A stretch of 39,924 nucleotides of DNA. Origin: a virus (taxonomy: Duplodnaviria; Heunggongvirae; Uroviricota; Caudoviricetes). Under the pieces are notes generated by a model. It saw only the letters and a list, made by a program, of their open reading frames with translations. It had not been told where the DNA came from and made no database searches. The stretch covers positions 1 through 39,924 of the IMG/VR virus record IMGVR_UViG_2778261064_000020. One strand, written 5' to 3'. Each line of letters opens with the position of its first letter. The stretch's first letter is position 1. The position numbers and the translations under genes were made by a program. This document shows, one piece after another, positions 11,349 to 11,937 of the stretch.

Positions 11349-11642
11349 ATGGTTCGTGCAAACAAACGCAACGAGGCTCTACGAATCGAGAGTGCGTTGC
11401 TTAACAAAATCGCAATGCTTGGAACTGAGAAGACAGCGGAAGCTGTGGGAGTTGATAAGTCGCAGATCAGCAGGTGGAAGAGGGACTGGATTCCAAAGTT
11501 CTCAATGCTGCTTGCTGTTCTTGAATGGGGCGTCGTTGACGACGATATGGCTCGATTGGCACGACAAGTTGCTTCGATTCTCACCAATAAAAAACGCCCG
11601 GCGGCAACCGAGCGTTCTGATCAAATACAAATGGAATTTTAA
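11349..11642 (+). CDS. cII: CII transcriptional activator
   Basis: MVRANKRNEALRIESALLNKIAMLGTEKTAEAVGVDKSQISRWKRDWIPKFSMLLAVLEWGVVDDDMARLARQV... matches lambda CII; the track ORF has a spurious 20-aa N-terminal extension. Confidence 0.9.
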   Translation: MVRANKRNEALRIESALLNKIAMLGTEKTAEAVGVDKSQISRWKRDWIPKFSMLLAVLEWGVVDDDMARLARQVASILTNKKRPAATERSDQIQMEF

Positions 11643-11664
11643 CAACATCCAACGAGGTAATTAT
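11586..11664 (-). ncRNA. oop: OOP-like antisense RNA overlapping the cII 3' end
   Basis: Minus-strand terminator GCCGCCGGGCG followed by TTTTTTATT inside the end of cII, as in lambda oop; the 5' end is inferred from lambda geometry and not read from the sequence. Confidence 0.4.
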
Positions 11665-11937
11665 ATGCGAAACAAAGGCTTTAATCCACCTGATACACAC
11701 AAAGAAGCTAAGCGTTTGCGCTTCCTTCGTTCCATTGATGAAAGAACTCAAATCTCTTTTGTGAAAGTTGCCAGAACTGAGCTTCTGAAGGCTGAGGCGA
11801 GGGCGTTGCTCCCGTCTCTACCAAAAGAGGAGGGATATACGTTCATTCCAAACGCATTTCTGGAAAAGCTGCTCAAAGAAGACATATCCGTAAGTCAGTT
11901 TAACGATGTTCTTAAGGTCTTTCGTCAAGGCAGGTAG
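11665..11937 (+). CDS. Hypothetical 90-aa protein inserted between cII and the replication initiator
   Basis: ORF MRNKGFNPPDTHKEAKRLRF... with ribosome-binding site CGAGGTAATTAT-ATG; lambda has no gene at this position. Confidence 0.45.
   Translation: MRNKGFNPPDTHKEAKRLRFLRSIDERTQISFVKVARTELLKAEARALLPSLPKEEGYTFIPNAFLEKLLKEDISVSQFNDVLKVFRQGR

Follow-up and report, generated by a model that had tools for sequence, protein, structure and literature searches.

The gene that follows cII is O in phage lambda, while in the window studied here (the whole 39,924-nt stretch of viral DNA that was analysed) it is orf90, a small gene in front of the replication initiator gene. This layout raises the question of whether orf90 is a real gene and whether it disturbs the promoter of the antisense OOP RNA, over which it was originally predicted to have been inserted. 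The answer in which we have good confidence is that a real slot gene and an intact oop unit are both present, and that they are ordinary elements of a P22-like early-right operon.

Genome setting and coding status of orf90

By patchwise matches, the genome is that of a P22-like (Lederbergvirus-type) E. coli prophage or phage, and vB_EcoP-611R6, Kapi1, Sf6, CUS-3, Gally and HK620 are 96–97% identical to the window in patches. The immunity region (10216–11230) appears lambda-like: it encodes a cI of 237 aa and a cro of 66 aa, and a pR-like promoter lies at 10977–11005. Its presence inside an otherwise P22/Sf6-like genome makes the sequence mosaic, the breakpoints lying at about 11236 and about 11332. 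To the left of cI, a region that holds rexAB-type or other accessory genes in lambdoid phages, a 173-aa ORF (9193–9714) lies on the minus strand. The window DNA is 97% identical to lambda over 11289–11638, and the similarity ends past the cII stop codon. The features of the region are as follows.

10216–10929, minus strand: cI, 237 aa
11030–11230, plus strand: cro, 66 aa, taken from the ORF list
11349–11642, plus strand: cII, 97 aa; Pfam Phage_CII, E 5e-48
11586–11618, minus strand: oop-type intrinsic terminator from a terminator scan, a hairpin (11618..11591) and then a T-run
11586–11653, minus strand: predicted oop-like antisense RNA, about 66–68 nt, 5' GUUGGAUG, placed by alignment with lambda oop including the 5' GTTG
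11654–11657, plus strand: ribosome-binding site GAGG of orf90, 7 nt 5' of the ATG
11660–11665, minus strand: pO-like -10 hexamer TATAAT, read from the sequence, overlapping the A of the orf90 ATG
11683–11688, minus strand: weak -35-like hexamer TGGATT, read from the sequence, with a 17-nt spacer
11665–11937, plus strand: orf90 (ATG 11665, TAG 11935–11937), 273 nt, 90 aa; phrog_2519, E 1.9e-57
11940–12887, plus strand: O-like replication initiator, 315 aa; Pfam Phage_rep_O, E 3.6e-15, and phrog_345, E 6e-100
12355–12509 (12355–12535 in a wider delimitation), no strand assigned: iteron array inside the initiator gene, a family of about eight CCGCACATGA-type repeats with a 12-nt period, followed by an AT-rich stretch
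12884–14260, plus strand: DnaB-type replicative helicase, 458 aa; Pfam DnaB_C, E 1.2e-77, and DnaB N-terminal domain, E 3.9e-13

The iteron array and the AT-rich stretch within the initiator gene probably constitute the replication origin, which is placed as in lambda. A gap of 22 nt separates the cII stop codon from the ATG of orf90, whose product begins MRNKGFNPPDTHKEAKRLRF. The ribosome-binding site of orf90 had been called reasonable, and this judgement is sustained by the GAGG in front of the ATG, which has purine-rich counterparts in every relative compared.

Generally, the evidence for coding comes from family membership and from selection. The orf90 protein matches phrog_2519, an uncharacterised phage protein family, over its full length (residues 1–90 against profile positions 1–90 of 90), and all 13 diverse orf90 members match the same profile. 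The original prediction could make no assignment for this protein, which is indeed annotated only as a “hypothetical protein” (in Gally, Kapi1, JEP4, HF4s and TL-2011a); the profile match gives its family. Homologues are 90–93 aa long, with identities down to about 41–50% and a clear conservation pattern. Codon alignments of eight loci gave a dN/dS of 0.06–0.19 where synonymous sites are unsaturated, the two halves of the gene being alike, while every well-diverged pair has a pS of about 0.7–0.8, at or near saturation, and a pN of 0.15–0.35. On this codon-level evidence, orf90 is a true conserved gene under purifying selection, with its length and position kept, and the claim that the locus has an extra 90-aa gene relative to lambda between cII and the initiator is borne out.

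Among 5426 complete E. coli genomes, 279 (about 5%) carry the full orf90 segment, many Stx2a prophages being included. The family is narrow, with 34 matches in an index of 5.8 billion proteins, and an exhaustive profile search of 1.84 billion representatives yielded 15 matches, mostly family members or fragments, two of the 15 being very long and apparently low-complexity proteins. A scan of a genome collection found two loci only. Annotation is uneven: the gene is missing from the annotation of CUS-3 and of 48 of the 49 Stx2a-phage records that have it, and it is over-extended in other records. The 120–164-aa versions in databases are such over-extended calls, since the frame is open upstream into cII. 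No match was found for orf90 in NCBIfam, the PADLOC defence profiles returned only JetB at chance level (E 0.021), a PDB sequence search gave a single chance match, and a literature search on phrog_2519 or the cII-adjacent gene found no papers.

Truncated or chimeric versions of orf90 are encoded on E. coli contigs (proteins P0022, P0024, P0030 and P0023). P0024 joins orf90 residues 1–52 to the C-terminus of a DnaB-type helicase, so that the initiator and most of the helicase have been deleted, as in a decaying prophage. As well, a 2692-bp record labelled as Staphylococcus phage SA 1298 Kay (OR850084.1) matches orf90 residues 10–90 at 74.1% in tblastn, with a score equal to that of Salmonella phage S.Inf 5-2; this record is probably mislabelled or contaminated.

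The oop-type antisense unit

The OOP terminator had been predicted to be conserved inside the 3' end of cII, and the minus-strand hairpin found there agrees, its stem being exactly that of lambda. Among eight sequences, compensatory changes occur at seven of the 11 stem pairs, with pairing retained. The predicted oop-like RNA overlaps the last 55 nt of cII and shares with lambda oop the terminator, the length of this overlap, the 5' GTTG, a -10 hexamer lying over the next start codon and, to within 1 nt, the distance from -10 to +1 (6 nt in the window, 7 in lambda). It differs in being about 11 nt shorter than lambda OOP, in the -10 hexamer (the consensus TATAAT, against CATAAT in lambda) and in the -35 hexamer (TGGATT, against TTGAGT). 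The RNA is predicted to fold into a strong terminator hairpin and a weak 5' stem, whose six pairs are split by an internal loop into four and two, whereas the 5' stem-loop of lambda OOP has 11 or more pairs; the strong 5' hairpin is absent from the predicted window RNA because 11 nt are absent relative to lambda. An Rfam scan of 9000–14000 at E ≤ 1 found no family, and the OOP-like RNA was hence not identified by Rfam. OOP RNAs have been detected in P22 and BTP1.

On the minus strand, the promoter region reads TGGATT, a 17-nt spacer, TATAAT, TACCTC and GTTGGATG. The TATAAT region aligns with lambda pO and with the annotated oop promoter of P22, and a TGG/TTGG motif is found at a matching distance in the relatives, in P22 and in Sf6. 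Across seven diverged loci (about 870 aligned nt with a mean nucleotide identity of 55%), the longest invariant run is the 14-nt block AATTATATGCGAAA at 11659–11672, which covers the -10 hexamer and the ATG; the second longest is AAAAA at 11589–11593, the U-tract of the terminator, and all other invariant runs are of 2 nt or less. Since the 14-nt block includes the start codon and first codons of orf90, part of its conservation could serve translation. In a consensus promoter scan, pO fell below the threshold and was left uncalled because its -35 hexamer is weak; the assignment is based on conservation and on alignment with known pO promoters, not on the scanner. Taken as a whole, the oop unit appears from these alignments to be intact and under selection.

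The gap between cII and O in lambda holds the 5' end of OOP, as the original prediction had it, but not the promoter, which had been placed there too and which lies over the start codon and first codons of O: read on the opposite strand, the -10 hexamer CATAAT is ATTATG and includes the start codon of O, and the -35 hexamer falls in the first O codons. TATAAT overlaps the start of orf90 in the same way as CATAAT overlaps the ATG of O, and the view that the ORF has been inserted over the expected promoter fails on this comparison. Each gene that follows cII bears pO at its 5' end, so nothing has been displaced by orf90. The suggestion that OOP could be driven from within the ORF is supported by the sequence, while the accompanying alternative of altered regulation is misleading, pO being where it usually is. 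Judged by these alignments, the presence of an extra gene at the OOP promoter is the normal P22-type arrangement and no disruption.

A site at the 5' end of the initiator gene was also considered as a promoter. The hexamer CATAAC (11936–11941, minus strand) is homologous to lambda pO, but it is degenerate and not conserved in the related loci L004 and L005, and this candidate was rejected. The site reads TCGTAG...CATAAC, compared with TTGAGT...CATAAT in lambda, and the DNA at the initiator start resembles a second copy of the promoter context that has decayed.

Transcription from the oop promoter core (TATAAT, 11665–11660 on the minus strand) would yield an RNA of about 66 nt whose sequence complements the final 55 nt of cII. 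This RNA might down-regulate cII as an antisense RNA, as in lambda, and its transcription would be convergent with that from pR.

The slot between cII and the initiator

The organisation cII-oop-orf-O-P, with a conserved 33-bp oop/pO block, has been described before, and lambda has been presented as a phage “naturally missing” the slot gene (PMC3349717). The slot gene is a short ORF in the pR operon that runs from the pO block to the initiator start, and orf90 has this form. A small gene is present at this place in many P22-like phages. When other lambdoid cII-O junctions are compared, as the original prediction had proposed, P22 orf48 and Sf6 gene 42 are found to fill the equal slot.

P22 orf48 (Pfam DUF2740, phrog_1913) follows c1/cII and precedes an O-like initiator and a DnaB-type helicase. 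The curated oop promoter of P22 (32346–32374) lies over its start (32349), so placed that the start codon is inside the -10 hexamer, and the end of the gene overlaps the initiator start. The orf48 product has 48 aa, compared with 90 aa for orf90, and is without the O-like C-terminal part discussed below. The motif HK-x3-R-x-RFL-x-S occurs at an equal offset in both proteins. In hhalign, the two match with an E of 0.0023 as single sequences and of 0.026 (probability 2%) profile to profile, over only 18–19 columns; six of the 13 orf90 members weakly reach phrog_1913 at E ≤ 1 (best 0.0024), and there is no match to Pfam DUF2740. In RefSeq and in PHROGs, orf48 (NC_002371 32349–32495; 1350–1496 in our locus L093) is labelled “tail protein”, which looks like an annotation error, because the gene sits between c1 and replication gene 18.

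The family of Sf6 gene 42 and HK97 gp53 (phrog_1331) occupies the same slot, with the shared conserved boundary GGAGTAATTATG at its start, and is likewise followed by an O-like initiator and a DnaB-like helicase. Gene 42 (53 aa) was rejected as a homologue of orf90, the hhalign probability being 0.1%. By its position and family assignment, orf90 is a third family in a known slot and is already catalogued.

The order cII, orf90, initiator and DnaB-type helicase was kept in every locus examined, namely those of Scandinavium and Pseudescherichia, four metagenomic relatives and L025. The partners of orf90 are mosaic: the initiators beside it have at least four types of N-terminal (origin-binding) domain, including the lambda/P22 type, and three C-terminal types, the helicases belong to several lineages, and several cII types lie upstream. 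In the window, L004 and L005, 2 nt separate the orf90 stop codon from the initiator ATG; in L086, L087, L089 and L090 the stop overlaps the initiator start by 4 nt, while in L088 the next called gene begins 62 nt downstream of orf90. From this stop-start layout, the initiator is probably translationally coupled to orf90.

Among 80 IMG/VR loci, which are near-identical and hence informative on breakpoints but not on divergence, homology to the window breaks on the left mainly at about 11236, 11332 and 11580. Position 11580 is at the oop terminator, within the 3' end of cII, and no breakpoint falls between orf90 and the initiator in any of the 80. Because the breakpoints part orf90 from cII and never from the initiator, the replication module has orf90 as its leftmost gene. 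Of 63 loci with a lambda-type P, 62 have 929–968 nt between the cII stop and the start of P, a space filled by O alone whatever the cII type; these loci represent essentially one module lineage, so that they are weak evidence for a functional link with the helicase type. The exception is the IMG/VR contig L164, in which the interval from cII to the lambda-type P is 2240 nt instead of about 930, and its O gene appears to be interrupted.

In addition, the initiator N-terminus (11940–12015 in the window, and in L004, L005 and L086) is conserved while the remainder of the protein is swapped, and in L005 homology to the window ends at about codon 36 of the initiator. The window N-terminus resembles MTNTAKILNF of lambda O, the ClpX recognition signal of that protein.

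Possible roles of the orf90 protein

The orf90 protein resembles initiators in part. Pfam Phage_rep_O is matched weakly, at the same place, by 11 of the 13 orf90 members (best E 5e-5), and the O-like PHROGs 678, 2365 and 277 are also matched by members. In hhalign against the N-termini of lambda-type O proteins, orf90 residues 53–88 align with lambda O 24–59 (E 3.9e-5, probability 71%). The aligned region of O comprises a strand and helices 1–2 of the winged-helix domain, with the pattern GY..IPN.FLE.LLK.D.S..QF..VL..FR. The orf90 protein terminates at the residue aligned with lambda O 59–61, immediately short of the conserved TYGW turn and the recognition helix. Compared with the N-terminal winged-helix domain of lambda O and Phage_rep_O, it lacks both of these elements as well as the wing, and has a basic helical N-terminal half of its own. 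The C-terminal third of orf90 appears, by these profile alignments, to be homologous to helices 1–2 of the O-type winged-helix domain. For the window protein, the score against Phage_rep_O (PF04492) is 14.6 bits, under the threshold of 28.7 bits, and covers only profile positions 6–39 of 95. Since the recognition helix is missing and the score is below the threshold, this is partial homology and not membership of Phage_rep_O, and orf90 is unlikely to read iterons alone.

In an AlphaFold model with a mean pLDDT of 84, the N-terminal 50 or so residues form a basic helical hairpin; an earlier model from a shallow alignment (pLDDT 58) was not used, and fold searches with the better model returned nothing informative. 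A recent tandem duplication was considered and rejected, as a direct BLASTP comparison of orf90 with its own downstream initiator found no similarity. The exhaustive profile search of 1.84 billion representatives contained no full-length initiator with the orf90 N-terminus.

Given its place, orf90 is probably an early gene transcribed from pR; it belongs to the replication module and not to the immunity module, and its protein would be made in step with the initiator by translational coupling. The reading we adopt, tentatively and judging from position only, is that the protein may be an accessory factor of replication initiation in modules of the DnaB-helicase type that acts via protein–protein contact, the iterons not being bound by orf90 itself. 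The occurrence of orf90 beside quite different initiators and helicases argues against a specific lock-and-key partner.

A more particular form of this role, which we regard as unlikely, is that orf90 is a domesticated chimera of a DUF2740-like slot peptide and the first two helices of a lambda/P22-type O initiator, kept as a trans-acting regulator of initiation in lambdoid replicons with a DnaB-type helicase. Such a protein could dock on the N-terminal region of the initiator, or on a host factor that recognises this region, and could thereby tune origin firing or initiator turnover.

Alternatively, orf90 might be a small modulator of the lysis–lysogeny decision that works with cII and oop, affecting cII stability or activity or the action of OOP, with its expression tied to pO; we give this a similarly low probability. 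The gene is always directly downstream of cII and has the oop promoter on its start codon, it keeps this position beside several types of cII, initiator and helicase, and the modelled basic helical hairpin of its N-terminal half would fit nucleic-acid or protein binding. Against such a modulator stand the breakpoints, many of them at 11580, that part orf90 from cII and never from the initiator, as well as the absence of a slot gene from the lambda-type O-P modules, whatever their cII type, at 62 of 63 loci; moreover, detectable homology of orf90 is only to initiator proteins.

Somewhat less probable still is the proposal that orf90 is a leftover, the 5' stump that remains of an earlier O-type initiator gene, perhaps joined to a slot peptide of the DUF2740/orf48 kind. 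The stump would have been left when a new complete initiator recombined in downstream, and would have been kept for pO and for feeding ribosomes to the initiator, its amino-acid sequence being functionless. The match of residues 53–88 to lambda O 24–59, which stops ahead of the TYGW turn and recognition helix, speaks for this proposal, and the 5' region of orf90 aligns with the start regions of lambda O, P22 orf48 and Sf6 gene 42. The motif shared with P22 orf48, the weak matches of six of the 13 members to phrog_1913 and the conserved stop-start coupling to the initiator also agree with this origin. However, a functionless stump would have decayed, whereas pN is held at 0.15–0.35 in both halves despite synonymous saturation and the length is held at 90–93 aa; no full-length initiator bearing the orf90 N-terminus emerged from the exhaustive profile search, and the similarity to DUF2740 is not significant at the profile level (E 0.026, probability 2%).

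That orf90 and the initiator are one product, made by programmed -1 frameshifting near the orf90 stop with the 90-aa protein as an unshifted by-product, is highly improbable and was rejected: by coordinate arithmetic the initiator frame is indeed -1 relative to orf90 in the window and the relatives checked, but this relation follows automatically from the ATGA overlaps and the TAGTTATG junction, in the window the initiator frame is open only from 11916 and the 19 nt preceding the stop are free of any X XXY YYZ heptamer (and hence of a slippery site), and the initiator starts at an ATG of its own with a conserved N-terminus like that of lambda O.

The arrangement of orf90 and oop has already been described in other phages, so that as it stands the finding changes little for phage biology. 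The gene orf90 merits a consistent gene call, and the oop unit could be annotated alongside it. If the reading of orf90 as a domesticated chimera were true, it would provide the first function assigned to any small gene of the cII-O slot. At least three small-gene families without significant sequence similarity share this slot beside replication modules of the DnaB-helicase type. Moreover, the oop promoter core and the U-tract of the terminator are the most conserved nucleotides from cII to the initiator, which supports a selected role of OOP and pO well beyond lambda.
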